Below are positions 3,106 through 50,300 of a stretch of 64,000 nt of DNA, one piece after another. How positions within the stretch are numbered: position 1 is the stretch's first letter; the number at the start of each line of letters is the position of its first letter. Location of the stretch: positions 174,381 through 238,380 of the forward strand of contig MNCI01000811.1 in assembly GCA_015680685.1 (NCBI GenBank). Reading direction: 5' to 3'. Below the pieces are notes generated by a model. That model made no database searches. It worked only from the letters and a program-made list of their open reading frames with translations, and was not told the DNA's origin. Made by a program: the position numbers and the translations under genes. The stretch is from Gnetum montanum. Taxonomy: Eukaryota > Plantae > Gnetophyta.

Positions 3106-5296
3106 GGGGCTCCATTGCAAAGCCAACATTGAGTCTCATCCACCTCCCCGTACTTGAAGAAGAGGTTGGTCTCATCATGCCCAGAGGTAATCACTGTAAC
3201 CTCTTGGGACTTGCTTGCTACTACAATGGTTAGCAATAAAAATTAGCAAAAGAAAAAGCAAATCATCACTTGAGCACATAAAACCAAATGCATAACTTAA
3301 TGTACCATGTTTGAATAGCATAGGAAATGGTGGAATTTTTGCCAAAACTTCTTCCATGGTAAGCAATCAATGATTGTCCCATTCACTATCCAACCAACCA
3401 AGCTCCTTACCCCTCAAATAGAACTTGGTATACTTGGTTAGGTAGGTTCTGAAATCAAGCCCAAGTTGTTCTATGACACCGACACATACATTTTTGGTAG
3501 ATGAGAACTCTTGCAAAGCCATTTGGGCCAACGCCAATGTATCTGTATTACCATGAAGACCATCCTTGTCAATCACAAACTTGGTAACATGCAAAGTATA
3601 ATAAGCATTTTTGATCATGTAGGAGAAATAATACAACATGCTTGAAACATCTCTATAGGACTCACCTGCCAGCACAATAAATAGTCCCAAGTGGGTTTTG
3701 GAAGTAGGTGCCCATGTGACGGGCAACAAACAACGTGTTGTATTTGTGGTAGCATTTGAATTTAGGCATGTCCCAAATCCAACTCAAGCATATTAAGCCC
3801 CTTGGGGGCCGACTTGATCCTTCTGCCCCTTCGCCCTCAATCAACCCATTAGCCATGAACTTCAAGATGCCTCGATTTGCCCCAAGCAACAACGTTTCAA
3901 CGAGCACGATGACTATTTCGACTGACAAGTGTGACCACACTATCACACTAAATTGATGAAGGAGGACTTCTAAGAACTCCTGAGTGCCCTTCCAGAACCA
4001 GACTACCTAATGCCCCACCTATGCATGGGGATGAGGGACATTAGCCATGGATTCACTTAGGCAGCACATGATGCTTACCAATTCTAGCACAATTAGAATG
4101 GGTTTCAACATAACCCTACATGATAAAGCACCAAACATTTGCACTGTGTTCAAGTGATGATTACTAATGTAGTGTAACATGACCCTCTACTTACAAATTT
4201 TTCCTCAGGCAAGAAATAGTAGGTCCCTGGCACAATAAAATAGAACTAAGTCCTATATGTAGCGTAGCAGGGTGTTACACATAGCGTAGCGTGGCAAGAA
4301 CACCCTACACAAAGTAGTAGCCATGTAGCATGGTAGACATGTCTTGTATAGTGTAGCGTAGTAGCCACACTTTGCACAATAGTGATGGTTGCATTATGCG
4401 TAAAGTAGCAAGACAATTGCACACCATGCAGCATAGAAAAGTGTAATACGACAGATGCAATAGTATGACAAGTGTAAAAATATAACAAGTACAACATGTA
4501 ACAAGCATGGCAATGTAACAAGCATTGCAGTGTAACAAATTTAGTAGCGTAGCAGTGTAGCAAATTTAATGATGTAGTAGCATTGCCAGTCTAACAACAT
4601 AGTAGCGTTGCCAGTCTAATAGCATAGTAGCGTGACAAGCCTATCAGTGTGGCAGCATAACAGGCCTACCAACATAGCAGTGTAGCATAACAGAACTAAA
4701 AAGTAACACAGTCTAATAGTCACAATGACCAGAACAACGTTGCCTAAGAAAAATACTCACAGTGTTCCTATTGCCTCGACCCTACCTCACTACATGAAAA
4801 GTGGCAAAATAAAATGCAAACCAAAAGAAAACCTTCCACTACATATGCTAGGTTATGCTAGACACATGCCACACTTACTAAGAAAATTGGCAAGCCAAAA
4901 CCTCCTCCATGGGTGCTACACTACGCTGAGTGAACATTACGCTGCCCAAAACTATCCAAACCCCCCTACAGTGCTGCATTAGCCATCAACAATGGTGGTC
5001 AGGATAATGTCATGCACCAGCTGTAGCATAACAATTACCATGACCACAGTGGCCAAGGTAATAACAACAGTAATAGGGTGGTAATATTGATAACCACAAT
5101 AACTAAGACGTGGTGATCATAGTGACAATCCCACTTGATACATTACACAAAGCAAATGAGGATATCGTAACACTTACCTGGTGGATGGACCCTCTAGCCT
5201 TTCCTCAATATGTGCCTTGGGGAGGTGTCACAGGGTGTGCCCCATTTCATACACTTTGGCAAGCCATTAATGCCTACATTCACTTTTGTGTGCCAT
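3106..5296 (-). pseudogene. Antisense spacer gene of element C, exons 1 to part of 4 (NIF/FCP1-like pseudophosphatase)
   Basis: Exon 1 5296-5178 (donor GTAAGT). Exon 2 4115-3666 (450 nt; KPILIVLELVS...WFWKGTQEFL...FSVIVWSH...NTLFV...FQNPLGT). Exon 3 about 3588-3306. Exon 4 about 3220-3106. Homologous to A and B. Confidence 0.8.
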
Positions 5297-5608: not shown

Positions 5609-6754
5609 TGAAACACTACAAAATTCGGAGCTTAGTACTTGTCCGACCCCAAACAAGACCTCGAAACTCACAAACGACGTCGGTTGCATGATCGTAACAC
5701 TTAGTTTTTGCTAAGTATATGGGACCAGCGTATACACACAGCGTATACGCCCGGCGTGTATGCCCAATATTCACTTCAGCGTATACGCCCAGCATTCTAG
5801 CGTATACACCCAGCTCTCCGGCGTATACGCCCAGGCACTGCAGATGCGCACGCTCGATGACAGGATCTCCAATGACAGCATGAAGATAACACCGAAGAGC
5901 AAGGATTGAAGCAAGTGGCACCCTTCGACGTATGCGCCTGGCGTATACGCCCAGCATTTCTACGTATACGCCCAGCACCCTGGCGTATACGCCCAGCGTT
6001 CAGCGTCTCCACCCAGTTCACGCCCAGCATTCTAGCATATACGCCCAGCGTATACGCCGACCTGATGCAGCGTATACGCCCAGCAATTGTAACATTTTGT
6101 ATATTTGTAAAGTGTATGCACCCGGTCAACGCGCCATGTGTCTCCCATCCCGAGTCTAGCGTAACAACCTGTATAAAACCCCCATTTTTCCACTTCCGCC
6201 GGACCTTTTGCGAAATCCCGAAGCATACCAGAGAACATTTATGCTGCGCAAAAAAGTAGAAAACCTTCTTACGCTGAGAAGTCCTACACGCTGTGGATCC
6301 AATCTCTTATGCTCCGCTCGCTCTGCAAACTGTCCGAGTCACCTGTGTGTACGCCGGGGCTTTTCGGCCACCTTGTGTTCCCACAATTGCGTTAGACTGG
6401 TGCACTGTACTCTGACTCTGTAATTCCATCGTTTCATTCATTGCAAGTTCTTTTATAGTTTTACGTCAATTTGGCCCATGCCTCGCTCGCGCTTTGTTTG
6501 CATCTGTTTATGTTTTACGCTATTTTTGCTTTGTTTACGCCTGCACGCCGTTTACGCATAACCCAGCGTATTAGCATTTGCATACGCGCGAGGAAATCCT
6601 TGTCTGATCTGTGTGCAGACCACCCAAGGTACTTTGCCTCTGCTACATTCTAGCATGCCCTCAGGCATAGGCAGGGTCTTCTGTACGCATCCTGCGATCC
6701 CGCGGCCTCTATTTTTTTCCTTCCAGCCGGAGATCGACGATTTCAGGTGGTACA
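5609..6754 (+). repeat. 5' LTR of A
   Basis: Direct repeat of 21473-22682. GCGTATACGC-rich U3. TATAAAA at 6172-6178. Confidence 0.96.
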
Positions 6755-6759
6755 GAAAT

Positions 6760-6776
6760 TGGCGCTAGAAGGAGGG
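6760..6776 (+). promoter_or_regulatory. Primer binding site (tRNA-Asn GUU)
   Basis: TGGCGCTAGAAGGAGGG lies 5 nt after the LTR and is complementary to the plant tRNA-Asn 3' end (CCCTCCTTCTAGCG-CCA, recalled rather than searched). Confidence 0.85.
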
Positions 6777-7303: not shown

Positions 7304-10300
7304 ATGAATCCTTTAAACAACACCGCTCTCACCGCTCAGACCACCGCCATGGATACCATAGCTGTCCAACAGCCCGTCGCAAAACACCCGGGAATGCAGC
7401 TCACAGCGGGTCCCCGTCGATCCCTAAGGCTGCAAGGGAAGAACCCGGCCTCTAACATTATTACCCAAGATCAGTACAACTTTATCTGCATTAAGATACA
7501 AGCTGACCTAGTTGTTGATCAAGCTGAACTAGAGGTGAAGAGGCAGTTTGAGTTGTATTACAGGGGGGGACGAGAGTTCATCCCAACCCCCTACGATGTA
7601 ATTCCCGTTCCTGAACAATACTCGGAACTCATCACACAACTCCTCCTCCAAAGGAACAATTTGTTGGATCAGCCCGCACTAGAGCCCCAACCAGAGGATG
7701 AGGATGAGTTTTCCGCTCAATCCAAGCAAGGGGAGTCGTTCCATACCTTAAGTCCTCAAGCGCAGGTCAACCCCTTTTTCCATCCCGGCACAAGGGAACT
7801 CATGCCCTTGCCACACCTTAGATTCCTCCAAGCCCAACAGCCACCGCCAGAAACAGCAGCATTAGTCCACGTCCCTCTCCCAAGCGACCCCCAACCCAAC
7901 ACCTTCCCGCTCACACTCATCCCTACGGCCGCGACGGGCCCATCCTCACAAGTGCAGCCACCTATCGATAACACGAGAGCAATGCTCCCACCAAGGGTGA
8001 TAGGGATGCCACACGTGATTTCGGCGTCCACATTCGCCCACTTCATACCACACCTCCAAGCACACATAGCTCCCCAGACAGCAGTAACCCAATAGGGAGC
8101 CCTCGCTCACAATGTGGCAGGGCAATGGCTGCCAAGGGGAGCGCCGTCGTACCAAGCCCCCCATTACCATGCGCCACCTCACGCAATCCCACCAGCCAAT
8201 GTCCCCCAAGCACAACCCCAGCTCCAGCAGCAATAGCCACAGCATTTTCCCTATCACGTGCCACCTGTAGCGCTACCCGCTGTAACCTTCCCACAAACAC
8301 AAGCACCCACGCAGCTTTCAGCCCTTCAGGCTCATACGCAACAATCTAACTTGTATGGTATACTGCAACCCCAAGACACCATATCACCGAGCGCCCAAGA
8401 CTGGGCGGATGCCAAGAAAATAATGCAAGAGCTTACTGAAGAGGTGAAACGCCTCAAAACGGCCGCTGAGGGAAAGCTGAAGATAGTGGATTTCTACAAC
8501 GATGACCCTATCAGCTCTTCTGTCCCTCCTCTGACCCTACCCAAAGGTGTCCCCCTACCAACGCTAACTAAATACAACGGGGAAACAGACCCCAACGCCC
8601 ATTTTATAACATTCAGATTAGAGTGCGCGCTGCTCCAGGCTTGGCCCCACGTCGTCCTTCAAGTATTCCACATGTCCCTCACGGGAAGGGCACTCGACTG
8701 GTACCGAGCCTTGCCCAGGGACTCTATCCTGTCTTTGGACGATCTTTTACGCCAGTTTGTGACCCGGTTCAAGTACAACTTGAAACCCGAGGCCACGTTG
8801 GATAGCCTCATGCAGATCAAGCAAGCACCGCTTAAACCGGTGCAGAAGTTTATTCAGAGATGGAGTGCAGCTCTTAATGAGCTACATGAACCGATCTCTC
8901 CAACGTATCTGCTTACAATATTGAAAGCGGCAGTCAATGATTTTTTCAAGTCCAAACTATATTACCTTAATGTGCACGACCTTAATGAGGCATTTGAACA
9001 AATCAAGAACATAGAGGAGGTGGCTCAAAACAGCCACGACCCCGCATACTTGGCCTTCAGAAACCAACACACTAAAAAGGACAAAGAGAAGGCCAAGACA
9101 ACTATAGTAGCAATAGCGGGAGCACAACAAACAAGCACCACACATCAACACAAACCACCCGTGCCCCCCACTAACTACTATCAGCCTGCTCCTACAGCAA
9201 CCCCAGAGTCATCATCACAAAATCCGATGAACCGTACGCGTAACTTCGAGAGGAAAGAACCCTCTCAGTACACTCCTTTACCGATGAAGCCATCCCAGCT
9301 CTTTGATCAACTCTTAAAGGCTGGATTGATGCAACACAAGCAATTGTCCCTAGCTGCTATCCAAAGACATGACCCGTTCTGTCAACTCGTACAGAACCCA
9401 AGCCTAGCAACTCCGGATGAGCCACCCGTGCCCAAAGGATTTAGGATGGATCGCTTCTGCGACTACCATCAACGCAACGGGCATGGAACGGATTACTGCT
9501 TTACCCTGAAGCAGGACATCCAGAGGATGATTGATGATGGCAAGATCACTTTTGACGAGGCTAACCCTGTCCAACCGCAAAATCAAACTATGGGGGTGTA
9601 TAAAGACCCCCTGAACGCTAAAGGGGCACCGTATGTAATTACTTCAATCCATTGTGATGATGAATCCAGCACATCCTGCATTAACTCCATCTACCCCGAA
9701 AATAAAAAAGAAATGCTTGACAAATCCTACGTAGTTCAGATCCCTCCCGCTGAGTCGACACCCGCCTATCAACCATCCCGTGCCCCGCAGCAGCCGTACG
9801 TAGTCCGAGTGCCCCCCACCGTACCCACTCCCAACACTATGATGCACCAAAAATCATACGTGGTGTGCATCCCTCCACTCAATCCTGCGGATGCATCAAC
9901 CCCTCATGCTCGGCCTACCCCCTTCGTAGTCCGAGTACCATCGACCGTTGCAACAACGGAGGTCCAACCTCCACCCAGACCAACCCCGTACGTCATTAGG
10001 ATACCTGGACAGGCTCCTGCCCAATCATATCCGACCATCCACTCGCAACCCTGACCAGCCCCATAAGTCGTAAAGGTCCCAAGGCAGCCCCAGGCCCCCA
10101 AACCAGCTCCACCTCCACGCTGAGAATGCTTAGCCGTTAAGCTTACCCGGGAACGATTGGAGAAAGAGTGCCAACGGTTAGCTCTGGGACCACCCAAACC
10201 AACTCCACTGAACTCCATGGCTATGTCATCATCCAGCGATCCACCAAACACAGACAGCAACGGTGAACCATCCAAAACACAAGAGCCGCATAACACGGCA

Positions 10301-10332
10301 GGTCCTAACAATAACGACAAACCACCAAAACG
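7304..10332 (+). pseudogene. gag: Gag of A (protease presumably in the N gap)
   Basis: ORFs 7304-8095, 8258-10054 and 10157 onward share one frame, broken by stops. Retrotrans_gag core KYNGETDPNAH...SLTGRALDWY...FVTRF; knuckle CDYHQRNGHGTDYC. Confidence 0.92.
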
Positions 10333-11204
10333 NNNNNNNNNNNNNNNNNNNNNNNNNNNNNNNNNNNNNNNNNNNNNNNNNNNNNNNNNNNNNNNNNNNN
10401 NNNNNNNNNNNNNNNNNNNNNNNNNNNNNNNNNNNNNNNNNNNNNNNNNNNNNNNNNNNNNNNNNNNNNNNNNNNNNNNNNNNNNNNNNNNNNNNNNNNN
10501 NNNNNNNNNNNNNNNNNNNNNNNNNNNNNNNNNNNNNNNNNNNNNNNNNNNNNNNNNNNNNNNNNNNNNNNNNNNNNNNNNNNNNNNNNNNNNNNNNNNN
10601 NNNNNNNNNNNNNNNNNNNNNNNNNNNNNNNNNNNNNNNNNNNNNNNNNNNNNNNNNNNNNNNNNNNNNNNNNNNNNNNNNNNNNNNNNNNNNNNNNNNN
10701 NNNNNNNNNNNNNNNNNNNNNNNNNNNNNNNNNNNNNNNNNNNNNNNNNNNNNNNNNNNNNNNNNNNNNNNNNNNNNNNNNNNNNNNNNNNNNNNNNNNN
10801 NNNNNNNNNNNNNNNNNNNNNNNNNNNNNNNNNNNNNNNNNNNNNNNNNNNNNNNNNNNNNNNNNNNNNNNNNNNNNNNNNNNNNNNNNNNNNNNNNNNN
10901 NNNNNNNNNNNNNNNNNNNNNNNNNNNNNNNNNNNNNNNNNNNNNNNNNNNNNNNNNNNNNNNNNNNNNNNNNNNNNNNNNNNNNNNNNNNNNNNNNNNN
11001 NNNNNNNNNNNNNNNNNNNNNNNNNNNNNNNNNNNNNNNNNNNNNNNNNNNNNNNNNNNNNNNNNNNNNNNNNNNNNNNNNNNNNNNNNNNNNNNNNNNN
11101 NNNNNNNNNNNNNNNNNNNNNNNNNNNNNNNNNNNNNNNNNNNNNNNNNNNNNNNNNNNNNNNNNNNNNNNNNNNNNNNNNNNNNNNNNNNNNNNNNNNN
11201 NNNN
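10333..11204. other. Assembly gap (N run)
   Basis: Run of n. By analogy with B it covers the protease and the end of the gag-PR ORF. Confidence 0.99.
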
Positions 11205-11480
11205 GACGTTAAACTATAACTAGTCCGAAATGACATTAAACTACGATAAAACCCAAAAACACAAAGAAACAATAATAAACAGCAAAAACAAAAAATTACA
11301 ACACTCCCTGTTTGAAAAGACGTTAAACTATCATATCCGCAATGACATACAACTAGCCATGATCAGCAACGGTCGGTCCACTATGAAACATCCACTTTCT
11401 CTAAAAATCATTTGTTTACAATGAGGCCCGAAATGGCCTTAAACTACGCATCGGGGCCCGAAATGGCCTCAAATTAGCGC
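11205..11480 (+). repeat. Post-gag/PR hairpin-TAAACT units (A)
   Basis: gtccgaaatgacattaaact; ggcccgaaatggccttaaact and a second similar unit. Confidence 0.7.
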
Positions 11481-11725
11481 GTATCTTGTTTTCCTTTTAC
11501 AGACCATTTATCTTCAATGTGTCATCTTTAAAACAGAAAAGCAAACCCAAAAAAATTTTAATGTCGTATCGTATGTGCAAAAAACTTAAAATCAACAAAA
11601 AATATTTATTTATGCAATGTTGTACAAATAATGCCTGTTTTTTCTCAGCATTTTTCAGTTACAATGCTCGTGTCAACTGAATCAGCAAAAAAACACTACA
11701 CAAAAAAAAACTAACTACAAAAGCA

Positions 11726-14700
11726 CTAGGCGTCCATAACAGGAGGATCATCTCCCTTAGAACCACTAGCGTCAGGAGCCCCTGCTTCACTAGGGCCAGC
11801 CTCGTGTGCATCATCACCACCTTCATGATGAAAACACCAAAAAGAAAAAAAAATCAACCAACATAAAAATGAGCAGATGTTAAAACTTTAAACCTTATCC
11901 ACTAAGTTAACTTCGTAAAGGCAAAACGCTTACCATGGGGGATCCCCCTAAGCCAAACTCTAGCCGACGAAGGATCTTCTCCTCTGGGACGCTGGTCCAA
12001 TCTGTCCCACCCAGGCCTAGGTCAATGTTTGCCAAGGCCTTGCCTTTGTCGACCGCTGACCAGGTAGGACGTTTCAGAGGAAATTCACCTACCGATACTT
12101 CCCCAGAAGCAGTTGTGATGACCCTCTTAGGCGATTCCATTTATAAAATAGTGTTTTGAGCAAAGGTATCGAAGGTGGAACGCAAACCCAAACCTTCCAC
12201 AAACATCTCCAGCTGCCACTTTTCAATGGATACTTCTTTTAGCGACTTCTTGTACTGATGTTTATGGTTCTTCTCATCTTGACCCCACTTGTGAACCTTG
12301 GAAGCAAAAGCCTTCCAATCTTGACACTTGAGGTTCAGGAGATCAATTTGGGCTTTGCATTCCGCTATCCTCCGAGTCAGTGATGCATGGAGGTTCAAAA
12401 GGTTCCAATACCTAGTTTATGTAATCTCTGATGTTCGCCAAGAGCGATCTCCGCTCAGTCTCACAGCGGCGAACTCGTATCAAGCCTTTAAATCGTCATG
12501 CTCCTCTAATACTTGGGAGATTGCCTTTTCCTTTGCTTTTACTTGTAACCACAATTGTTCAACAGAACGTCTACAAGTCCACAACGACTTGGCGTTGTGC
12601 GCAAGGCTGTCCGCAACGCCTTCATAAACAGGCCTTGGCACCTGTTCCACTTCTGGGGAGAGCGTAGTCAAGCTTTCCATGCTGATGCCCTCAGAGGGAT
12701 CCCATCTTAGTTTAGCACCTACCCACGTAGAAAATATGAACATTAGAATTGTACAAATAAGACAGGAAGCTCCTAATCATTAAACGAGTCATACCTATAT
12801 CAGGATGGACTTCTTGGAGATGCTCAATAACTTCTTCCGCGATTCCATCCACAAAATTCGACTTACTTGGCATCTCTAACCAAATAAGTGGTTGACACGT
12901 ACGGGAAGAACTAACCTCAGCGGTCCCTTCAGGGGGAACCATCTTCATGGGAACGTCCAACCGTACTGTCCTGGTATCGCTGCCTTCATCTAAGCCAAAA
13001 ACACGAAAATAAATAAATAAGAAAAAGAGTAGGAGCCACAATTAATATAATAAAAACCAACTAAGAGTGAAAATATACCCTGATCCTTGTCACCTTCTGG
13101 GGGATCGCCCAAGTCCAAGTCGCCCTTGAGGAAGCTATTGAACATTTGGTTGATAGCGTCCTGGTCGTCTAAAGGTGCAGTTTCAATAGCCTTCTCTGTT
13201 AATGGCTCTGTTCCCCTGCCTTGGCTCTTCTCTGGGCTTTCCTCCTCATTGTTCTTCTCTGTGTACGTATCCTCCTCCTCTCTGATGGTCTCTAAAGCCT
13301 GCTTCCTCACTTCATCAAATCAAAAACAACAACGTAAGCAATTGAAGTAAGGGTTACACATAAACGAAAACGATAAAATGATAAGTAGATGGGCTTCATT
13401 CACCTAGTATCTTGAAGCGTATTTTCTTTACACATGGCTGGTTTCTCTCGGCGACTTGTTCTGTGAGGCGTTCGGGTCTTCAATTTCGATTTGGCTTTGC
13501 CAACAGTTTCCTTGATTACCCACTCTGCCCGTCTGGCGGTTAAAGGTACGTCCGCTGGCTCCATCCCCAGACTGTCCCGTGTATGGATGGAACCGCCAGA
13601 TGATCCCCTTGTAGTAATAGACACGGACTCATCAATACCTTCCGAGGCATCCTGCGACTTGGCAGTCGCGTACAAGTGCTTGACCCATGGACGGGATAGT
13701 TGACCCTGATCTCGTAGGAAAAACTTGTTTTTTGCACGCACCACAAGGAACTCGGTGAAACGACGAAGATAGTCGACGAAGAAGGCAAAAGTGAAGTGCG
13801 ATTGTGCTTCGATATTCATGCACAACCGCATAATCTCCTTATGCATGCCTGCCAACAAAAACTGAGCCCAATTGTACTGCATCCCAATTTTCAAAATCAT
13901 CCGCATGATGCGTACTGCCTCCACCCCAAAACTCCGCACCTGAGAGAGAGTTTTGGGAAACACCCGTGCTCAAAATAGGGGATGCAGTTCGTTTACCTCA
14001 ACAACCTTTGCCTTCCCCTGCATTGAGAACCCCTTGGTACCTTTCGTCACACCAAACCAAGACTCCAGTTCACGGATCGTTTGGAGCTCTTTGTGAGACC
14101 TGTCCAACACTACGGGTAGGCCATCTGCCAGCATGCCGAATAAGTTAGAAAAGAATACAGGCAATAGATGGAACACCACCATGACACCCTTAATCCGGGT
14201 GTTGTACTGAGAGACAGACTCATTGAAAGATTCCACGATCCCTATCATTTCCCCAATTGAGACATTAGGGCTTGGCATCATGAAAAGCTCTAGGAGGCCT
14301 GCATCATCCAGGCAATGAGTGAGGGACGGCGGGGCTTTCTTACATAACCACTTCTACGCCTTCTCTACTCCCTCGAACTTCATCAACAAAGTCATCTTAG
14401 TTCATCCAGTTGTCACAGGGTCCCCACCTGAGGGTTCATCAACTGTTAAAACAAGTTAAAAAAATCACATCGGTCTCACCCTAAACAGTTGAACGAAGCC
14501 ACTAACGCATGTAATAAATGCCACTACTCACCGTTAGTGGTAGATTTCAAGGTACTGCCAAAACTATGAGAGAAGACCGGTCCCTCCTCTGTCCAGTCCT
14601 CGTGCAGCCATCCACAGGCTTTGCACATCGCAAAGGCTCTAGAAAATTGCTCATGGAAGCAGACCATCGAACCCTTTTTCTGGGCCAGTACGGCCCCACG

Positions 14701-16111
14701 GAGAGTGGCAGCCATCATAAAGGCCTCTAGAGCTGTGCGAGTGAGGGCTATCCCTTCGTCCTCAATCAGAGTCCCATCTGGGTTAGTCTTTGGCCTGCAA
14801 ATAAACGCATGTTAAAACCAAAAATTAACATCAAACAACGACCGATGAAGCAAGAAAGTCAACTAGTCTTACCTGGTTATTCTGTACACTGTGCCAAGAG
14901 GATTCTGAAACAGGGTGTACGCGCGGGCAGCTATAAACAAAGTGTTGTTAATATAATCCAACCCTGGTGGCAACAACTCCCACACACGTGTTAACGGACG
15001 TGTTGACTTGGGCCCGTGAGTACTACCATCTTCATCAACAAACGGGCCCTTGTCAATGTCTTCCATGAAGACCACAACACCCTCTGCGGCTCCTGGCAAT
15101 AATGCATCAACTACACTACACGCAGTCACCTCATCAAAAAATGACCACATAACCACCTCGAAGTTGGTTAACAGGAAGGCTAGAAATTCGCCAACGCCTT
15201 CCCTGAACCAGACTCCCTTATTATCCACAATTAGAGCTGGGGGAAGATCGCCATCTTGAATGGGTCCAGCCCACGTCAGAACCCCGACAAGCTCAACCAC
15301 TATGAGGAAACGTTTGCTATCCCTGCAACCAATTGCAATGAAATAAAAGTTTACATCACAGTCAAAAAATAAACTAACTATTTACGCCCAGCATATACGT
15401 TGTGCCCAGCGTATACGCCCACCAAACCACTTCGAAAAACAACTTACGCCCAGCGTAGACGCTATGCCCAGAGCGTATATGCCTGTGACGCACGCTTCAG
15501 CGTATACGTTGTACGAAGCGTGTACGCCGAACAAAACATGATTCGAACGTAGCGTATATGCTGAACTCAGTGTATACGCCGGGCGAACATAAATACGCAA
15601 CATAAACCCAGCGTATACGCTACAAAACTCAGTGTCTACGCTGACGCTCGACCCCCCCACACACAGCATATACGCTGGTAAAACCCTCAGCGTATATGCC
15701 TGAATCCACCGACAACGTCAATAGACTACGCCAAAAAGTAATTAGCATCCTAGAGCAACACGCACAGCGTATACGCTGAACAAACCCTCGGCACATATGT
15801 CGTCGCGCAACACGATTTACGCCAAGAAAATACGCCGGATAACAAACGCCAATAAAATGGATGACAGTCTATGCCGTGCAGTGACGTGGGTGTGCACGCC
15901 AAAGAAACCCTCAAACCCTCTACGCTCGATCGTCTACGCCAAAAGAACCAAAACAATAACAGACAGAGATCAAGGCTTACCCGTAGGGCGTCACGGGCCA
16001 CTTCGACATCTTCGGCCTAGGCAGGCCCTGCAGCATTACCTCCGTCTCTTCGGCGAAGGTTAGGTCAGAACCCTTCTTCCCCTGGCCTTCCACTTCCTTG
16101 CCCTTACCCAT
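11726..16111 (-). pseudogene. About 8-exon antisense gene of A: NIF/FCP1-like pseudophosphatase, plant-transposon-protein-like domain and coiled coil, about 1060 aa
   Basis: Exons 16111-15981, 15322-14873, 14794-14532, 14442-~13404, ~13310-13079, 12989-12795, 12718-11934, ~11825-11726. GT-AG introns 1-3, 5 and 6 join in phase; intron 4 and the last acceptor are uncertain. A few in-frame stops, mostly CGA>TGA or CAG>TAG type. Collinear with B. Confidence 0.85.
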
Positions 16112-16282
16112 CGCGAAGTGTTCACGTTGACTGTCGAAGTGCACGCTGAGCGACTATCTTCGAGTTTGGCGTCTACGCTGGGTTGTCTGGCGTCTACGCT
16201 TGGGAAGTTTACGCTTACGCTTACACAGGTCGTACCTTACGCTGTCGTTGTTGAAAACAGGAAACAAATGGACCCATCATCC

Positions 16283-16290
16283 TTTATATA
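16283..16290 (-). promoter_or_regulatory. Candidate TATA box of A antisense gene
   Basis: TATATAAA on the minus strand, about 175 bp upstream of ATG 16111. Confidence 0.55.
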
Positions 16291-16504
16291 ATGCCTGTTG
16301 ACGCTGACGCTGACGCCGCCGCCACTTACGCCACCATCGCTCCGTTTTTGCCGTTTTGCCTCTATTTTCCTCTCTTTTTTGCCGAAATCTAACCAAAAAA
16401 TATATATATATATATATATAACTATTTCTAAGATTCAATTTGAGACAGTATTACATCCTGGTTCCTCCATGGACCCCGTTTTACACGTTCACTTAATCTA
16501 CAAC

Positions 16505-16648
16505 CCATTGCCCCGGTATGGCCTTAAACTGCCATCTCCTCATCCACTAGTGGCCCGGTATGGCCTTAAATTGCCATTTTCCCCATCCTTGCGTGGCCCG
16601 GTATGGCCTTAAACTGCCACTCACTGCCCGGTAAGGCCTTAAACTAAC
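16505..16648 (+). repeat. Pre-pol hairpin-TAAACT array (A)
   Basis: Four copies of about gcccggtatggccttaaact. Confidence 0.85.
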
Positions 16649-16683
16649 ATGCATCCAGGTGCGACGATAATCCACCATGATAC

Positions 16684-19600
16684 ATGTATACACACTTTAA
16701 ATTTCTGAAAGACATGAAACGATCCTTTCTTGCTCACGAAACTCTCGGTTTATTGGCAGGGATGAGCTCAATGGACTGCCAGCACTTAACCGCACCGTTA
16801 ACCATCGACGGACCATATGGCGCCATTACACGAGACTTTGACATAAACTTCATCAACTCAAGTCCACTAATGGATGACGCGGTCATAGCCTCAACACAGC
16901 AAACAACAGACAATTACCAAGGCATGACAAAGTTTCTTGACATAGAAGCTGAAAACATCACTGAAGACCCGTTAGCTGAAACCCCCATTACTATGCCTGA
17001 TGAGGAAGTTAAAATATTAAAATTAAGCATGCTATTACAACCATGCATGGCTCAAGACATTCAGAATATGCTTAGGGAAAACATGAAAGCGTTCGCTTGG
17101 TCTTATACGGACATGCCCAGGCTAGACCCTAGGATTGTCCAACACAACATCATTCTTGATCCAAAACTAAAACCGATAAAACAAAAAGCGCGAAAAGTTA
17201 GACCCGAAGTGGCGTTGGTAGTTTGCAATGAGATTACTAAGCTTTATCAGGCTGGTTTCATTCGGGCTATTGATTATGCCGAGTGGGTGTCAAACATGGT
17301 CATCGTCCCAAAGAAAAACGGAAGCATTCGCTTATGCATCGACTTCTGTGACTTAAACGTAGCAACCATAAAAGATGACTTTCCCCTGCCCAGCATCGAT
17401 CAACTCGTTGATTTGACTGTCGGACATGCCTTATTGTCGTTTATGGATGGCTTCTTGGGATATAACCAAATACGCATCAACCCTGAACACCAACTTCGAA
17501 CTACCTTCATGACACCATGGGGAACCTTTTGCTACACTATGATGTCGTTCGGTCTCAAAAACGCTGGGGCCACATATCAAAGAGCCATGACGTTTATCTT
17601 TAGTGATTATATGTTACAATCACTCAATGATTACGTGGATGACATAGTAGTCAAGTCAAATACAACCGAACAGCATGTACAAGACCTCGACCTAGTCTTA
17701 AAACGTTGTTTAAAATATCAGCTAAGACTTAATCCAAAGAAATGTGTTTTCGGCGTCAAAACAGGCAAGATGCTCGGATTCATAGCCTCTGAAGCAGGGA
17801 TACGAGTAGACCCCAATAAGGTGAAAGCCATTACCAACCTGAAACCACTTGGTAACCTTACCGAACTTCGAGGCCTACAGGGTCGATTACAATTCATTAG
17901 GCGCTTCGTAGAAAATTTAACAGACAAATTAAAACCTATGAACCACCTGTTACGTAAAAATGTCCATTTTAAATGGACCCCGCAGTGCCAGGAAGCCTTC
18001 GAAAATATCAAGACAGCACTCACCCGACTGCCTACGGTTTACCCACCCCTAAATAACAAACCATTTTACATCTACCTTGCCACCTCAGAGTTGTCCATAG
18101 CATCTATGCTCTGCCAGAAACGAGATGACGGAACCGAAGTCCCTGTATACTATTTGAGCCATGCCTTAGTTGCCCATGAAAAGAAGTACAACGACGTGGA
18201 AAGGTCATGCTTAGCTCTAGTCTTTTCTCTAAGAAAATGGCGACATTACCTCTTCCGTAATCAAGTTTATGTAATCTGTAAGGACAATGTATTAAGAGCC
18301 CGATGGAAAGCCATGATAGCCAAGTTTGACCTATACTACGTAGTGCAATCATCAGTCAAAGGTCAAGCCATAGTAAATCAAATGGCCGCATCGCCAATGC
18401 ATGACCAAGCAACCATAGAACCTGAATTCCTGGATGAAAGTATAAGCACAGTAGACACGGTGCCTGATGACTACGATGCCACTTTAAACTTCGACGGAGC
18501 ATCCACCTCTCGAGGAGGAAGTGCGGCCACCATCATCACTTATCCCTCCGGGGAGATCCGACCCTTTGCCTATCGCTTCAATTTTCACTGTACTAAAAAC
18601 ATAGCAGAGTACGAAGGTCTCCTTACAGATCTCACAGCAGCACTGGCTTCAGACATCACACACCTGGTAGTTAGAGGGGATTCACAATTGGTGGTAAACC
18701 AAGTCACGGATGTCTACACGTGTAAAGCTCAACATTTGCAACCATACTATGACTTGGTGAAACACTTAATGAAACAATTCAAAAACGTTGATGTGCAACA
18801 TGTCTCCTGCAACGATAATACCATAGCTGATGCGTTAGCCACACTAGCGTTAAATATATCGCCCGACATGTTTCATGCCTTGCCAAGCTCCGTAATCAGG
18901 TGCGATGGACCAATCATCTCCGAAACATTGCCGATCGCATCTATTAGTACAACACACACGATGGAATGGTATGATGACATAAAAGAGTACCTTCTACGTA
19001 GCGAGGCCCCGCGACATCTAACAAATGCACAAAGGGACGCTGTGCAAAAACATTCTAAGTAATATACCCTGGTAGGGGACACACTATGTCGTAGATCTTA
19101 CGAAGGCGTATTGCTAACATGCGTCACTAGCACGGACGTCCAAACAATTGTCGATCAGGTACATGAGGGACTATGTGGAGGACACATAGCACCAAAAGCC
19201 ATGTCCATGAAAATAAGACGCTTAGGCTACTATTGGCACCACATGGAATACGACTGCTCCTCCAAAGTCAAAACATGTAACATTTGTCAAACACATAGTA
19301 ACTTAATACATGTGCCACCAACCGAGTTGCACACAGCACAGATCACATGGCCTTTTCAGAAGTGGGGATTGGACCTCATCGGCCCGATAACACCCTTGTC
19401 TTCCGCAGGGCATAGTTTCATCATAACCGCGACAGAATACTTTACGAAGTGGGTAGAAGCAGCTCCCCTTCGAAAGACGACTTCTAAACACGTGTGCAAC
19501 TTTATCCTAGAAAACATTGTAACCCGTTTTGGCATTCCCATGACAATCATCATCGACAACAGGCCACAATTTAGTAATGCTGAAACAAAAACCTTTTGCG

Positions 19601-20205
19601 ATAGTCTGGGGATTAAGCATTCGTTTTCTTCCCCTTACTATCCTCAAAGCAATGGGCAAGCATAAGCAATGAACAAGACAATCATAATAATACTTAAGAA
19701 AATGCTAATCCAAAGCAAAAGGAAATGGCACGAACAACTAAAATACGTACTATGGGCATATCGCACTACACACTGGGTGTCCACAGGTAAAACTCCGTAC
19801 AGTCTCGTATATGACTCAGAAGCTGTTTTACCTTTGGAATTACAGGTACCATCGCTAAGGATCACACTCTCCGGACTCCTCGATGACGAGTAAAACAACA
19901 AGCTAAAGCTCATTGACCTCGACTCGGTAGAAGAAGAACGTGCACGCGCACTCGATCAGATCGACTGGTACCAAAGGCAACAACGACAGTGGCATCGGCG
20001 TGACATTAATAAGCGCCCAATCCATGAAGGTGACCTCGTACTCAAAGCTGCTCGGGAACACCCAGACAAATTCTCAACCAATTGGGAAGGGCCTTACATG
20101 GTCCTCAAGGCATTCGATAATGGCGCATTCAAGTTAGCTGACATCGAAGGGAACGAACTCGCTAATCCGACAAATCATTTGTACCTAAAACCATTCTATG
20201 TCTGA
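16684..20205 (+). pseudogene. pol: Pol of A: RT-RNase H-additional (archaeal-type) RNase H-integrase, with no protease
   Basis: RT: LCIDFCDLN, YVDD. aRH: FDGAS...NIAEYEG...GDSQLVVNQV...ADALA. INT: HEGLCGGH...CNIC, WGLDLIGP, NWEGPY. A few in-frame stops. Confidence 0.95.
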
Positions 20206-20225
20206 ACACAAGCTCAGGTACGTGT

Positions 20226-20595
20226 AAGTCCTGGAATTACGACTATAAACTAGTACCACAGAGAAGTCCTGGGATCACAACTCTAAACTGATACCACAGC
20301 TCGTCCTGGAATCATGACGATAAACTGATACCACAGAACAGTCCTGGATTATGACTTAAAACTAATACCACAGTGTCCGCAATGACAATAAACTACCATC
20401 CGTCCGGCATGACAGTAAATTGCCGCCGTTACAACCATCAGAGTCCGCTAAGACCATAAATTAGCTTGCCTCTTCATAGTCCGCTAAGACTAAAAACTGG
20501 CAACGTACCATTCGCCACGACGCTAAACAGGCAATGTCCAACGGGTTATGACATAAAACTAACCCACAATAGTCTACCAAGACTATAAACTGGCA
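20226..20595 (+). repeat. Post-pol hairpin-TAAACT array (A)
   Basis: About 11 units, e.g. gtccgctaagactaaaaactgg. Confidence 0.8.
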
Positions 20596-21417
20596 AGTTC
20601 ACATCCAGCTCGGCAATCCGCCGCCACAATCATCCATTGGCTTCACTGCATCGCTCGTCATCAATACTGCCATCATCTACATATAGGGCCTACCATCCTT
20701 CAACATCTCTGTGTCATCGGCCGCCATATAAGTCTAAGCTCGTCTATTCACTCACGGTTTTCTTGTCTCCTTGGCGTTGTGTTTGCAGGATGACACCCAG
20801 AAGTGTCGTACAAGACAGCACTTCATCACGAGCAGCGAGATAAGACATTGTTTGCAGCATACATAGCAAGACTGAATCAAACTGTTCACCAGTACGTCCC
20901 CATTCCCTGATAAAACTCCCCTATCCATTCACCAAAACACTTTATCCCGACATCCCCTTGACACACTCGGTACATTCGAAACACCGTACTGCTTTAAAGC
21001 AGCCGCAACACGCCACGCAGCACCTGCACACGAGTACAAAAGCAAAGTCAAGTTTACAATTTGCAAAAAAAAAAAAAAGACCTCTGGCACTTCCCATACA
21101 AGCCCCAGGCGAAAAGGCAGTTGTCTCAAAACTAAGTGCTCATGTCCAAAGCGGTCAAACAATATCTAGTTGCATGGCTTTGACTCCCCGCCAACAGGTT
21201 CCCCTTGAACACTAAACATGGGCCCTGCTCTCCCAAAGAATGTAACACATCCTCCCGTGACTTTGGCCTCGCCAACCGGTCCTCTTGACAACTAACCAAG
21301 AGCCTCGTTCTGCTAAAGCATGCACACCGCATGCCTGTACTCCGAGTCTGCTACAACAATGGCTAAGGCACAGATCAGCATGCCACATNTATCGAGTCGC
21401 TTGTGGTGTTTTGCACT

Positions 21418-21472
21418 TCTTTGTCGATGCCTCTCGGGTCGATTCCTCCAAGCGTCAACAAAGAGGGGCCAC
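21418..21472 (+). promoter_or_regulatory. Conserved stem-loop plus polypurine tract (A)
   Basis: ctttgtcgatgc...gcgtcaacaaag stem overlapping AAAGAGGGGCCAC, directly before the LTR. Confidence 0.8.
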
Positions 21473-22682
21473 TGAAACACCACAAAATTCGGAGCTTAGT
21501 ACTTGTCCGACCCCAAACAAGACCCCGGAACTCACAAACGACGTCGGTTGCATGATCGTAACACTTAGTTTTTGCTAAGTATATGGGACCAGCGTATACA
21601 CATAGCGTATACGCTCGATGTGTACGCCCAATATTCACTTCAGCGTATACGCCCAGCATTCTAGCGTATACGCCTGGCACTTTAGCGTAGATGCCCAGCT
21701 CTCCGACGTATACGCCCAGGCACTGCAGATGCGCACGCTCGACGACAGGATCCCCAATGACAGCATGAAGATAACACCGAAGAGCAAGGATTGAAGCAAG
21801 TGGCACCCTTCGGCGTATGTGCTCGGCATATACGCCCAGCACCCTGGCGTATACGCTCAGCGTTCAGCGTCTCCACCCAATTCACGCCCAGCATTCCAAC
21901 GTATACGCCGAGCACCCTGGCGTATACGCCCAGCGTTCAGCGTCTCCACCCAATTCACGCCCAGCATTCCAGCGTATACGCCCAGCGTATACGCCCAGCG
22001 TATACGCCCAGCAGTTGTAACATTTTGTATATTTATAAAGTGTATGCACCCGGTAAACGCGCCACGTGTCTCCCATCCCGAGTCTAGCATAACAACCTGT
22101 ATAAAACCCCCATTTTTCCACTTTCGCCGGATGTTTTGCAAAATCCTGAAGCATACCAGAGAACATTTACGCTGCGGAAAAGAGCAGAAAAACTTCTTAT
22201 GCTGAGAATTCTTGCACGCTGCAGATCCAGTCTCTTACGCTCCACCCACTCTGCAAACCGTCCGAGTCACCTATGTGTACGCCAGAGCTTTTCGGCCGCC
22301 TTGTGTTCCCACAACTGCGTTAGACCGGTGCACTGTACTCTGACTCTGTAATTCCATCGTTTCATTCGCTGCAAGTTCTTTTACAGTTTTACGTCAATTT
22401 GGCCCATGCCTCGCTCGTGCTTCGTTTGCATCTGTTTACGTTTTACACTATTTTTGCTTCGTTTACGCCTGCACGCCGTTTACGCATAACCCAGTGTATT
22501 AGCATTTGCCTACGCGCGGGGAAATCCTTGTCTGATCCGTGTGTGGACCACCCAAGGTACTCTGCCTCCGCTGCATTCCAGCACGCCCTCAGGCGTAGGC
22601 AGGGTCTTCTGTACGCGTCCTGCGATCCCGCGGCCTCTGTTTTTTTCCTTCCAGCCGGAGACCGACAATTTCAGGTGGTACA
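21473..22682 (+). repeat. 3' LTR of A
   Basis: Direct repeat of 5609-6754 with a different copy number of motif units. Confidence 0.96.
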
Positions 22683-36533: not shown

Positions 36534-38663
36534 ATGGTGCCCAAACAGAGAGGAAAAAGAAAAAATCCCATAATTCAGAGGATGGATGAGCATTTAAAGG
36601 AGTTATCAGAGGTTCCTAAGCCTATCTCGATCCAAGCTCCATCTTTCATTGCTCCATGGTAGGCAATTCTATCTATTTTTATCTTTTCTTTCATTAGCTT
36701 TTTGCTAGTTTTTTTGCCTTCCAAGTGTTAGGGCCAATTTTTTAAATCTACTTCGATGGGAAAATTAAGTTATAATTCTAACAAAATCCCACCTCCTATT
36801 ATGGCTGCTTCCATGTAGATCTATGGTTGTTTTATTGCTTTAACTGTTGTAGATTTGATTTTGAAAATAGGCCTTGATGTTTTGTGCTTTTCTCTCAAAA
36901 TCTTGGGTTATCATTGTTCTTTTAGATCTAGGCCTTAGGATTTGTTAAAATTAAATTTTAACCAACTCCTACCCCATTACTTTGATGTGAATTTAAATGG
37001 TTTGTAAGGGTTTTAGCTATTGGAACCATTTTAATGGCTATATGAAGTTTAGGTTGTGGGGATTTTGAAGTTTTGTTACAAAAAATCAAGCCACATTGTG
37101 TATTTTTTTCTTAGTAAAATGACTACATATTTGTGAAATCAAAGGTTATGTGTTTGTAGCCCTTTGTTTAAACTTCCTAATGGTTGTTATCTTGTTTAAT
37201 TTGGCTTTGAAATGAGGGAGTTATGGCTATTTTCCTAATGTTGCATAGTTAGGTTGTTTGCACCACTTTTGTAATTTCATGTAGATTTGTAAACATTTCA
37301 TAAGAAAATAGCCAAGGAATTTCCTTCAGCTTTAAAATGGAGGTGAAATAACTTTGATTGGATTTAAAATTATTTTTTTATGAATTTTTTGCTAAGGTTG
37401 TGTAGATCATGGTAAAACTCACGAAAATAGAAGTGGCTTATCTTTTTCTTTTTCTAGGAGAGTAAAAGCTTTTTCTATTAAATAAGTTTTTTTTATGGTT
37501 TCATGGCTTTTTCTAAGCTTATCATGCTTTTTTCTAAATTTGTGCATAGTTTAGATGCTTTTTCCAAATTTATACATGCTTTGCATAAGTTTAGATGCTT
37601 TTTCTAAACTTATGCTTGTTTTTTTTTCAAATTTATGCATAATTTAGATTCTTTTTCCTAAATATATGCATAATTTAGACTAAGATATAGTTTTGTTTAT
37701 AATTTTTTTAGTTATAAAGGCTATAAAATATGGTACCAATGTTTTTATTGAACTTCTCAAGCTAATTTATATAAATACCTAAGAGCTTTTTACAGAAGCT
37801 AATTTAACTTCTAACTTAGGGAGTTTTCTATAAATTTTTAAGGAAATTCCAATTGGTCATAATGAAAGATTATGTAAAGTTGTGATGAAATTACTTAGGC
37901 TAATTTAGAAAAACACCTTAGAGCTTTTTATAGAGGCTAGTTTCACCTTTGACTAGATGTTTTGTCTAAATTTTCTAAGTAACTCTAATAGGCCAAAATT
38001 ATTTTGCTTTGAAAGGTTGTGATAATGCATTTTTATGGAATTTCTTAAGCTTATTAGATAAACATATTAGAACTTTCTACAAAGGCTAATTGTACCCTCT
38101 GACTAGATGTTTTGTCTAAATTTGTAAAGAAATTCTAACTAGTCACAATGTTCTTGCCTTATTTTATGTAGGGTCTTCTTGAGGCCTATTCTCATTATAG
38201 TGGAGTTGGTAGGAATTTTGTGCTACATTGTTCATCCCAAGACCAATACTCCACCACATGACATGCCTCTTTGGAAGCTCTTGTTGTGGTTCTAGCCTAG
38301 GGTAAGGGACTTCCTTACCTACCTCCTTAGGAACTTCAGTGTGATGTTGTGGTCACACTTGTCCATGAATGTAGCTAGGCTTATTGTGGAGAATGGCCTT
38401 CCACATCTACCCTTGAAAGTCATGGAGCCAGAATCTCCCCAAGTTTGATATACTTTATGTTTTAGGTTTTTAAAGTTATGATTTTGGCTATTGGTTACTA
38501 ACTGGCTATATGTTGTTGTATTTTAGATCTTAGGAGACATTGGCTATCCTAATAGTGAGGGTGGGAATGATCCACCACCTCTTCCCCAATGGCTACTCAG
38601 TAGCCTCCTTCAATTTAGCTTGTTGGCTATTTGTTTTCATTTTTATGCTGATGGTTATGGTTA
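36534..38663 (+). pseudogene. Three-exon mini version of the antisense gene in D
   Basis: Exon 1 36534-36658 (MVPKQRGKRK..., phase 2). Exon 2 38172-38442 (RPILIIVELVGIL...WF*PRVRDFLTYLLRNFSVMLWSH). Last exon about 38527-38663 (GDIGYPNSEGGNDPP). Confidence 0.72.
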
Positions 38664-47399: not shown

Positions 47400-50300
47400 A
47401 TGAAGGGCAAAGGCAGGCAGGAGAAAGGCAAAGGAAAGAAGGAGGTGACACTATCATTCATGGAGGAGAGTAAGGAGATGCTCCAACTCCTCCCTCAACC
47501 TAAGATTTCGTCATGGTCAGGGACTCTATGCAAGTATGTTTTTCTTTCGTTCCTATTCCATGGCATTGTACTATGGTGTAAACACAGCGTGAGCGATTAG
47601 GGCTACCACTTTTGCTATGTTTCATAGTGGAGATTTTTGCTAGATTCTAGGATTTATTTTGTGGTTTTCTTGTGTACGTATCGGGCATTAGGGACGTTGC
47701 TGAGGTTTTGAGTTTTCACCATTTTTGTGGTTGCTGTGTGATATGTGTATGAGTAGCGTAACGATTGGTTAGTAGTGTAGGGATCAAACTCAGGGCATGC
47801 CTAGCATGAGTGACGAGGGTGTGGGTTGTATTGCAAGGCATGCATGGGGGTTTTATGGGATCTAGATAGCATGGTTGAGGGTTTTGTGTGACGTTACCGG
47901 GCACATGTAGAGTGGTAAGTTTAGCATTAATGCTAATGTGATGCTGGGCATGGCGTGAATTGAGTTGCAGGACGCGTGTGTGTGCCCTAGCGTGAGTTGC
48001 AAGGGTGCATGTTAATCCTCGGCATGAATTATGACCAAGACTGGTAAACAGTCTTTGTTGAAATCAAACATCTAACTGCAATTTTCCCTTCTCTGTTGTA
48101 TACGCTTTAGTTTTTTTGAGTAAATCTGCGTCAGAATATGGGATGGCCCTAAGGCTAGCAAGCAGCTCACTTTGCGTCTAAAGGAAAATCATCTTTAGAT
48201 GCAACTCTTGAGACTCTAAAATAAATTTTTAGTTTGTGTCGAGAGTTATGAATTTTCTTTTAGGTGCATTCTTTTCATTAGGGACATTCCTAGCATGAGT
48301 TAGATACAAGGTCATCATCCCAGGGTGAGGGGTCCCAGAGTGCAGGACAAAGGCATGAGCTGGGTGCCGAGGGCCTGAACATGGACGCCCAAAGAAAAGT
48401 GATCTTTGTGCCTAGGCATGAGTGCCCAGGGAAAATGCAATTTTTGAAAATTTTTGCCTGGGCGTGAGCACCCAAGGAAACTACGATTTTTGTGGTATGG
48501 GTAGCATGAGCTACCCTCCAGCATGAGTTGTGTTGTAAGTAGCAACGTAAGTCGTGTTCATGGGTTGCAGCGTGAGCTGCATTGCAAATGTTCTTTGGCT
48601 ATGTTTTACTGCATTATGCATGGTAGCGTGAGTTACTAGAACTGGCATGTGAGTGACTAAGAAGGGAGCAAATTATTCATCTGGTGCTGCTAGTTATTTG
48701 TATCTTTTGTTTTCTTGGGCTAAATAGTGAAGATACATGTTTTGTATTTGCAAATGAATTTTCTTTTTTTGAATGTCCTTGTCTCATGGGGTGATCTTGC
48801 ATGTGCGTTGAATGTTATTTACTCATTAGGTTTATTTACTTATTTGTTTTTTTAGTTTATATGTTTTACGTTTTAAGTTAATTACTTAAGGTTTTGGCTC
48901 TGTGCAGGGGACTTAAGCCCTTTCTTTTGGTGGTGGAACTCATGGGTGTGTTGTCATGGTTTGGCCCCTTGGAGCCCAATGCACCTCGTCATGACATGAA
49001 GATCGAATCACAAGGGTTATGGTTTTGTCTGGGCTCTAGTGAATTTCTATCGCTCATCCTGTAGGGTTTTAGCGTGGTCATCTGGTCTCATTTAAGTGAA
49101 TAGTTGGCTTGAAGTGTTGTTGAGACCGTACTGCCTGGCTCATCCCATGACATATTGGCCTTCATCGTTGATGTGGATGAGGGATTATTTAAAGTTGATG
49201 GTGGTCCTACCAAAGGTCCTCGATCTACTTGTCATCTGACTCATGTTTGGGACTTACCATCTTGTAACCACTACAACAGTAGTAACATCCTTTTCCTAGC
49301 TTTCCGTGTACATACATTATTCCAGAATCCACCTAGAATAGTGGATAGGGTAGAAAGGTAAGTGTTTTTTTTATTTATCTTTATTTTATTTGCTTCGGTG
49401 CTATACCATTATTTATGTTTGATTATCGTTTTCTTGGCAAGCCTGATTTTGATGACCACGAGATGCTCAAGAATGATGATGGACTTGGCTTAACGCGTAT
49501 AGCCTTGGAGGCTTTCATGGTGGATCCCACTCTTTGTGGTGCCGTGTTGGCTCAAACCAAGGGTTCTATTGTTCATTATCATAAGCAGTTTTCTAGGGCC
49601 TTTGAACGTTGTGAAGATCATGGGTGGCTACATGAAGATTGGTCTCGCAATGGACCACTTTCCCTCAAGCGGTTGATTTAGTGCCAAGTATGCCTAATCC
49701 ATTTGATAGTGGTAAGTGATTGCGTTCTAAGATTATTTTTTATCTTTGCTACCCCATTTTTTATCTTGATATTGATCCTTTGTTTAACATGTTTTTACAA
49801 GGGATATTACTCCTAGTGGGGTCACCATCATGTCTGGGCATACTAAGGGTACCCTTTTCATGAAGTATGGGGAGACGGAGGATTCGCAATGGTGGTTGCA
49901 TAGAAAGGCACCTCAACACATCATCACTTGCCTTACTAATGCTGGTCTGATGGATTTGTTTACTGCCTTGACTCCTATCATTCCCACAACTGAGATGGTT
50001 ACCATCATTGACTCTTTCAATGATGATGTTACTTATTTTAGCATGTGGGTGTGGGGGGTTAAGGTTGCATTCCATTTGATTGTTGAATTCTTTTCAGATC
50101 TCTTTGGGGTACCGGCAGATGGTGTCAAAGTGGTGGTGGATAAGGTGAATAGGGAAGGCCACATGATTAAGGACCTTGAGGAATGGCTGGGCATGCCACG
50201 GGGTTCCAAGGGCTTCCCTATGCAAGTGGACACTAAAGTGACAGAAGTGAATTTGTTGTACCCATTGTTTAGAGCACGTGCATTTCCCAAGTCTCTTTCT

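Follow-up and report, generated by a model that had tools for sequence, protein, structure and literature searches.

The window analysed here (the whole stretch of DNA, 64,000 nucleotides) holds four diverged copies, A to D, of one exon. This exon, exon 2 of an antisense accessory gene carried by retrotransposons, encodes a NIF/HAD-fold phosphatase domain that has lost its catalytic residues. We regard both the identity of the domain and its inactivation as solid. Its reading as a captured pseudophosphatase in the initial annotation is borne out, together with the loss of the catalytic Asp in all families and the capture by the element. What the data show is a NIF domain with a dead motif, maintained by selection in an accessory gene family that is transcribed. 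We propose, at a rough probability of 0.55, that this domain acts as a docking module without enzymatic activity, within a regulatory protein that the element encodes and that is predicted to be nuclear.

The antisense accessory gene and its carrier elements

Exon 2 of copy A is 450 nt long and lies on the minus strand, exactly at the position initially annotated (14873-15322). It is in phase 2 at both ends, with AG as acceptor and GT as donor; the same sites align in copy B, and the acceptor with its phase 2 is also present in copies C and D. There are no stops in its 149 codons, which fall within the open minus-strand frame 15381-14869, whilst both frames read from the ends of 14873-15322 are closed. 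The peptides quoted from it in the annotation are all present in the sequence. Identity to exon 2 of copy A is 45-46% for B, 36% for C and 32% for D. All four copies have decayed, with stops or truncations in each: exon 4 of A (3 stops, plus a late frame shift close to the exon end), exons 2-4 of B (3, 1 and 4 stops), exon 2 of C (2) and exon 2 of D (1). A chance match or a one-off insertion of a host gene was ruled out, because the exon recurs in four families, whose RTs are 64-80% identical to that of A, each time on one and the same side of the RT and with the same phase 2 acceptor.

Table 1. Positions in the window of the exon 2 copies, the other exons of the accessory gene and the carrier elements.
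Feature	Position	Strand	Description
Exon 2, element A	14873..15322	-	NIF/HAD-fold pseudophosphatase domain, 149 whole codons, open; motif residues (P0026 numbering) E11-L-V13-G (I), S61 (II), R109 (III position), A132-A133 (IV)
Exon 2, element B	48908..49357	+	3 stops
Exon 2, element C	3666..4115	-	2 stops
Exon 2, element D, 5' part only	38172..38430	+	1 stop
Exon 1	15981..16111	-	Contains the ATG; 43 codons, rich in Lys; its phase 2 GT donor aligns in B
Exon 3	14532..14794	-	Open in A (87 whole codons); identity to B 63%; matches no family
Exon 4	13403..14442	-	About 345 codons, 50% identical to B; 3' boundary approximate
Middle exons (two)	12795..13319	-	Acidic, low-complexity; inner boundaries approximate
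Coiled-coil exon (likely)	11934..12718	-	Weak TPR_MLP1_2 match, E 0.08
Last exon	11586..11827	-	Stop 11728-11726, 3' UTR, poly(A) tail at 11586
5' LTR, element A	5609..6754	+	TG...CA; target duplication CCATG; primer-binding site at 6760, presumably tRNA-Arg
3' LTR, element A	21473..22682	+	87% identical to 5' LTR over 1219 columns
gag, element A	8237..10054	+	Retrotrans_gag, E 1.8e-7
RT, RNase H, archaeal-type RNase H, integrase, element A	16681..20364	+	Profile matches
Element B	39501-60294	-	Target duplication GTAGA; LTRs 85% identical; protease near 53700-54100
Element C			Interrupted by A; pol resumes at 23171
Element D			Interrupted by B

The gene to which exon 2 belongs has about eight exons (about seven introns) and lies antisense in the spacer between protease and RT. 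Its predicted protein of ~1,000 aa would comprise a basic N-terminus, the dead NIF domain, the exon 3-4 region and a likely coiled coil. Exon 4 ends in a basic stretch (RAKKIR in B) that resembles a nuclear localisation signal; a motif scan for such a signal in exon 1 of A found none. No BRCT or dsRNA-binding domain was found in the exon frames scanned. A GCGTATACGC-type repeat is common to intron 1 and the region upstream of the gene (15390-15900, 16160-16340) and to the LTRs of A (5720-6090, 21590-22020), and repeats of this type might be bound by a factor of the element itself or of the host. Tandem arrays of 27-43 bp units (39015-39496, 53040-53289, 16512-16650, 11410-11480 and 20226-20373) flank the accessory gene on both sides and also follow the integrase, several of them with an AGTTT(T)A-GG-CC core.

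The carrier elements are nested, with A (5609-22682) inside C and B inside D. A further 3' end with its LTR, at about 1-3106, cuts the accessory gene of C. The insertions of A and B are old, since their LTR pairs are only 87% and 85% identical, respectively. In A, the protease falls within or close to a run of 872 N (10333-11204); in B and D it is located after gag and ahead of the spacer. A carries RVT_3, an archaeal-type RNase H, after RT_RNaseH and before rve, as described for Tat/Ogre elements in the accessible part of PMC6317226. By this layout the elements appear to be Ogre-like Tat retrotransposons. Compared with 27 database proteins, picked from 120 matches and none labelled by lineage, the RT core (17200-17979) reaches no more than 62% identity. 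In the RT tree A and B form a long branch (100/100) that groups with Cryptomeria and Victoria rows (93/90, unstarred), and we read the RT as probably that of a deep Ogre-like lineage.

The protease-RT spacer of Ogre elements is described as an intron with a mean of 274 bp that is spliced from some transcripts (PMC6317226, accessible part). The spacer of B measures about 6.6 kb. Acceptor-like sites precede the RT in A (16740-16760, plus strand) and B (46650-46680, minus strand), and a donor-like GTAAG follows the protease in D (about 60680, minus strand); the phases of these sites mismatch in the present copies, no reads span such a junction, and the donor side of A consists of N. The arrangement suggests that the 6.6 kb spacer may be an enlarged Ogre intron containing the whole antisense gene.

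Identity and nearest relatives of the exon 2 domain

When exon 2 of copy A was searched with phmmer against 1,835,955,588 proteins, five matches were obtained at E ≤ 0.001, three of them to NIF proteins (best E 5.6e-7, query residues 4-145). The remaining two were unrelated Calx-beta repeat proteins matching short stretches. In the ESM Atlas all 30 matches were NIF (best 0.93). A profile was also built from 18 host NIF proteins alone (P0002, P0004 and P0027-P0042, found via P0004), with no element rows; copy A played a part in the choice of these proteins, B, C and D none. In six frames of the window this host-only profile detected all four copies (E 2e-14, 5e-11, 4e-9 and 5e-6) and gave no other match below E 2. 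The real copies scored 25-51 bits against at most 2.2 bits for shuffled sequences (250 shuffles per copy). Motifs I to IV follow the order of the NIF/FCP1-homology domain (PF03031), with sequence homology across the domain. The host-only profile, phmmer, ESM Atlas and motif order thus support the NIF/HAD-fold domain proposed initially.

The search against Pfam PF03031 gave a mixed result. Copy A matched at 16.9 bits (E 0.005) and copy D at 13.5-13.7 bits, whilst B and C gave no match, and the score of A lay below the gathering cut-off of 21.8. The sub-threshold score probably reflects a domain too diverged for the curated cut-off. Neither an NCBIfam search with the four copies nor a word-indexed protein search (80 candidates) gave a match, and a single-sequence PDB search returned two, both due to chance. 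Close protein relatives of the domain were absent from the protein databases covered by the word-indexed and phmmer searches. In metagenomes, the exon 2 alignment gave 376 pattern matches and no confirmed relative; the single candidate from a viral contig was rejected as a phage tail-type gene. An RT query returned 80 plant contigs, most of them short and all lacking the domain, and no RT match in viral contigs.

All three phmmer NIF matches read D-(L/V/I)-N-G at motif I. The library searched must contain many SCP, FCP1 and CPL proteins. Against 177,635 PDB sequences the sole match of a four-copy profile was UBLCP1 (E 0.038), and no SCP1, Fcp1, CTDNEP1 or Tim50 chain appeared at E ≤ 10. Host protein P0004 likewise had UBLCP1 as its best PDB match. 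The link to FCP1/SCP/CPL drawn in the initial annotation is therefore not supported at the sequence level, where the neighbours are D-x-N proteins and UBLCP1. Assigned by search rank, the nearest sequences would be those of a little-studied D-x-N NIF subfamily rather than of FCP1/SCP/CPL. The host NIF rows score far below the TIGR02251 (Dullard-like) and TIGR02245 (UBLCP1-like) cut-offs and thus form a group of their own. The KxLxxVW and NTL...NP motifs that had been cited for FCP1 homology are motifs of this subfamily. Exon 2 has its nearest sequences there and shares the motif I Gly, LxxVW and NTL...NP, but in place of D-x-N proper its copies read E-x-V/M. The domain would accordingly be classed, on residues and search rank, as a derived relative of the D-x-N subfamily rather than a plain member.

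Members of the subfamily, among which we take SPBC1271.03c and At3g29760 to be named, are often auto-labelled TIM50 in databases. The best host match, Sphagnum P0001, carries two D-x-N NIF domains in tandem. A fungal DXNXT NIF protein described as a second HAD pseudophosphatase (PMC13216928) probably belongs to the same group, and the accessible parts of PMC5485742 and PMC8774115 hold no further information on it.

Structure prediction gave a pLDDT of 39.6 from the single sequence of exon 2 and 78.7 from a 22-row alignment, in which 18 rows are host NIF proteins, so that the model leans to the NIF fold. Its most confident part is the N-terminal 80 residues, hairpin included. Foldseek ranked CTDNEP1 (E 8.5e-6) and SCP1 (E 2.7e-5) first and UBLCP1 47th, which runs counter to a D-x-N donor. 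VIA-align placed SCP1 (1t9z) first, with Z 10.9 and rmsd 2.5 over 122 aligned residues. The top matches of both programs are NIF/HAD, in line with a HAD fold with beta-hairpin, but this agreement depends on the host NIF rows in the alignment.

The closeness of the model to CTDNEP1 and SCP1 bears on one alternative, a decoy that would block host CTD phosphatases by binding either the Pol II CTD in its phosphorylated form or a substrate of CPL1, e.g. HYL1. Pol II transcription is indeed needed by the element. SCP1 is however tied with the runner-up, a generic HAD hydrolase (Z 10.1, within 1 Z), and may come out on top by default, as the PDB search with P0004 gave no D-x-N chain. With D-x-N proteins and UBLCP1 as sequence neighbours and the metal site gone, a CTD decoy is very unlikely.

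Active-site loss, selection and transcripts

Motif I reads ELV, ELM, ELV and ELV in A, B, C and D, i.e. E-x-V/M in all four copies, and motif IV reads AA, AF and AR in A, B and C, copy D ending before it. These are the residues given in the initial annotation and they are correct. The roles of motifs II-IV in HAD catalysis are established chemistry, and the Lys of motif III is lost in all three copies that reach it (R, C and I in A-C). In the alignment of the 18 host proteins, D11 and N13 are present in 17 rows each and S61, K109, D132 and D133 in all 18; the corresponding residues of the element copies are E, V/M, S, R/C/I, A and A/F/R. Exon 2 thus has neither the DxDx(T/V) motif I of an active CTD phosphatase (FCP1, SCP, CPL) nor its motif III Lys and motif IV Asp. 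Catalysis in this Mg2+-dependent family is defined by the DxDx(T/V) motif, and at the CTDNEP1 nucleophile D67E abolished pNPP hydrolysis (PMC11145253, accessible part).

The losses were compared with the columns conserved in at least 80% of the 18 host proteins. Structural residues L7, L12, F47, F55, V57, W60, S61 and P105 are retained in 4/4 copies and L111, N127, N141 and P142 in 3/3. By contrast, D11 and N13 are retained in 0/4 and K109, D132, D133 and K137 in 0/3. The residue losses appear targeted, with catalytic sites gone and the core retained. Across 134 columns, conservation in the element copies correlates with that in the host at rho 0.36. W39-F40 at the end of the beta-hairpin is invariant in the copies, and the invariant E11, F40 and A132 are unlike the host family. 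Cys, Trp or a stop at some Arg columns of B-D resembles the usual decay of methylated CG sites.

Between A and B, exon 2 is less conserved than the other parts compared, at ~46% identity as against 63% for exon 3, 50% for exon 4, 69% for gag and 79% for RT. This, and the predominance of core hydrophobics among the retained residues, would suit a structural passenger, a domain captured along and kept merely for folding and for spacing the working domains. Yet an exon in phase 2-2 could be dropped without a frame shift and is present in all four families, and its new invariant residues (E11, F40, A132) are not those of the host family, so we consider a passenger distinctly unlikely.

The pattern of substitution was assessed on a DNA-only alignment of exon 2 from A and B, in which 86, 104 and 45 of 149 codons are identical at positions 1, 2 and 3 (58, 70 and 30%). 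For all six pairs of copies pS was 0.62-0.85 against a pN of 0.34-0.49, in a protein-guided and hence somewhat biased alignment. RNA data came from raw-read runs of the same species label. For the reads of relatives 40 differences were listed, with 14 more outside the listing; the 20 listed in exon 2 comprise 15 synonymous, 5 first-position and 0 second-position changes (p 1.7e-4); exon 3 showed a weaker signal, with 5/10 at third positions. At the Glu11 codon 7/7 reads from three runs differ only synonymously, a result that concerns motif I, as depth over motif IV was low, and that applies to copies at least 80% alike, which the read mapping takes in. These comparisons indicate that exon 2 has been under purifying selection.

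The 3' part of the antisense gene is spliced and polyadenylated in relatives. The introns on both sides of the likely coiled-coil exon are spliced in their RNA reads, intron 12717-12794 in 6 reads from two runs (CT..AC on the plus strand) and intron 11827-11934 in 11 reads from two runs. In run X3, 5 reads carry at 11586 a T run that is absent from the genome; it marks the poly(A) tail of an RNA from the minus strand, about 140 bases beyond the stop. For run X1 the direction of the reads was disregarded in deducing strand, since reads over pol point the same way. No splice joints across introns 1-3 are listed among the RNA runs (depth under 4), and we infer the inclusion of exon 2 in mRNA from the conservation of its splice sites. 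Among the 77 reads on exons 1-4, none reaches 95% identity to copy A; the transcription evidence concerns relatives, and copy A itself stands outside it. Seven reads of run X4 join 12884 to 19018, skipping 6133 bases, and this joint is a transcribed deletion derivative of the family without exons 1-5 and RT.

The initial annotation had further proposed a phospho-substrate binder or decoy that affects transcription or silencing. A phospho-substrate trap is expected, from HAD chemistry, to retain the Mg2+/phosphate site, and the loss of the Mg2+ ligands argues against a phospho-CTD trap. Against a reading without any phosphate, however, Ser61 and the Arg at the Lys position of copy A could still hold one. 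A metal-free pocket might therefore grip a phosphoprotein, not necessarily the CTD, or a small phosphorylated molecule, and shield or sequester it. Ser61 is present in 4/4 copies, A-C each have a basic residue (R, R and H) after motif IV, and the invariance of Glu11 and Ala132 suggests that the shape of the pocket matters. The motif IV Asp is nonetheless lost in 3/3 copies, the Lys column reads R, C and I, and a Glu without Mg2+ would repel phosphate. We consider such a phospho-binder unlikely.

Glu11, unchanged in 4/4 copies and in all seven reads, might alternatively be the nucleophile or the base of a novel reaction that needs no metal, and some classed pseudophosphatases stay active, e.g. 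Ppn2 (PMC13216928, accessible part). With three of the four HAD motifs broken, and D67E sufficient to kill CTDNEP1, an altered enzyme is highly improbable.

Proposed role and comparison with known systems

For the docking module that we favour, the following history is proposed. An ancestor of the four families would have captured a host NIF gene of the D-x-N subfamily; the likely donor would already have lacked the general acid. The remaining acidic residues would have been replaced once, after capture, since Asp to Glu and Asp to Ala are common to all copies that cover those sites. The fold may then have been retained as a binding surface, as in fungal Tim50, which lacks a perfect motif and is inactive and whose groove beside the beta-hairpin takes peptides (PMC8346121, accessible part). 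The antisense orientation would preserve the introns through reverse transcription of the sense genomic RNA, and the protein could benefit the element by recruiting a host factor of transcription or silencing, or by sequestering it. Nuclear action is predicted from basic stretches seen by eye, which together with the likely coiled coil would fit a nuclear regulator. Identification of the partner of the exon 2 protein would reveal the role of such an accessory gene and give a clue to what the D-x-N NIF proteins, which are widespread, do.

Of the known systems, D-x-N NIF proteins (Sphagnum P0001, Riccia P0041, Cyanidiococcus P0002) share with exon 2 the motif I Gly, FL..L...F.V.VWS, L..VW and NTL...NP, and copy A is 26% identical to P0001 over 143 residues. 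They differ in retaining the Asp (17/18), the Lys (18/18) and DD (18/18), none of which is kept in the element copies. The host domain also has a C-terminal helix, whose counterpart was undetected in exon 3; a profile of 11 host tails gave no support to exon 3 as this helix. FCP1/SCP/CPL, CTDNEP1 and UBLCP1, the last being the only one matched by sequence in the PDB, have the same HAD Rossmann-like fold with beta-hairpin, whereas exon 2 is without DxDx(T/V), Lys and metal ligands. The core of fungal Tim50 is likewise a NIF fold without a working motif that is used for binding (PMC8346121), but Tim50 is a mitochondrial receptor of another lineage and was matched by structure only (E 2.9e-4).

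Exon 4 (13403-14442, minus strand; 49801-50834, plus strand) resembles, by eye, a plant-mobile-domain or Transposase_32 pattern. Pfam gave no match to the plant mobile domain (PF10536) in exon 4, whole or in pieces, and the ESM Atlas no usable match with exon 4 of B. A PMD-like exon 4 would make the protein a counterpart of the PMD-PP7 module of PMC7156037, where the MAIN/MAIL1-PP7L complex and the MAIL3 PMD-PP7 fusion join a phosphatase-type to a transposon-linked domain to control genes and transposons. A PMD-like region, a dead NIF domain and a coiled coil, encoded antisense in a giant Ogre-type intron, could then make up an anti-silencing or transcription-licensing factor mimicking the MAIL3 and MAIN/MAIL1-PP7L module. 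We hold this to be rather unlikely; PP7 is a host-encoded phosphatase of PPP fold (PMC7156037, accessible part), and a PMD was detected here by no tool.

Antisense extra ORFs are already known from Tat elements, among them the Ogre plant mobile domain, Retand Transposase_28, PMD-coiled-coil and Tr28-coiled-coil proteins (PMC4408406, PMC11963269, accessible parts), and the accessory gene resembles them in its orientation and likely C-terminal coiled coil. In the accessible surveys such ORFs lie 5' of gag or 3' of pol, whereas the exon 2 gene lies between protease and RT; it also differs from them in its NIF domain and its introns, about seven in number. The REXdb table of extra-ORF domains (matches in at least five elements) lists no NIF/HAD domain, and the main text of a 121-genome screen, as far as accessible, names none. 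In a literature where subscription papers are thinly covered, we found no report of a NIF/HAD domain, nor of an antisense gene between protease and RT, in plant LTR retrotransposons. Most extra ORFs of these retrotransposons have no traceable origin or function in the accessible text of PMC7264820 and PMC6317226. Capture of a host enzyme domain is itself known from AlkB (2-ODD) in orchid Ogre-like elements (PMC9289625, accessible part), which like the NIF domain has been fixed in a Tat lineage; AlkB is active in vitro, whereas the NIF domain of exon 2 is predicted to be dead.
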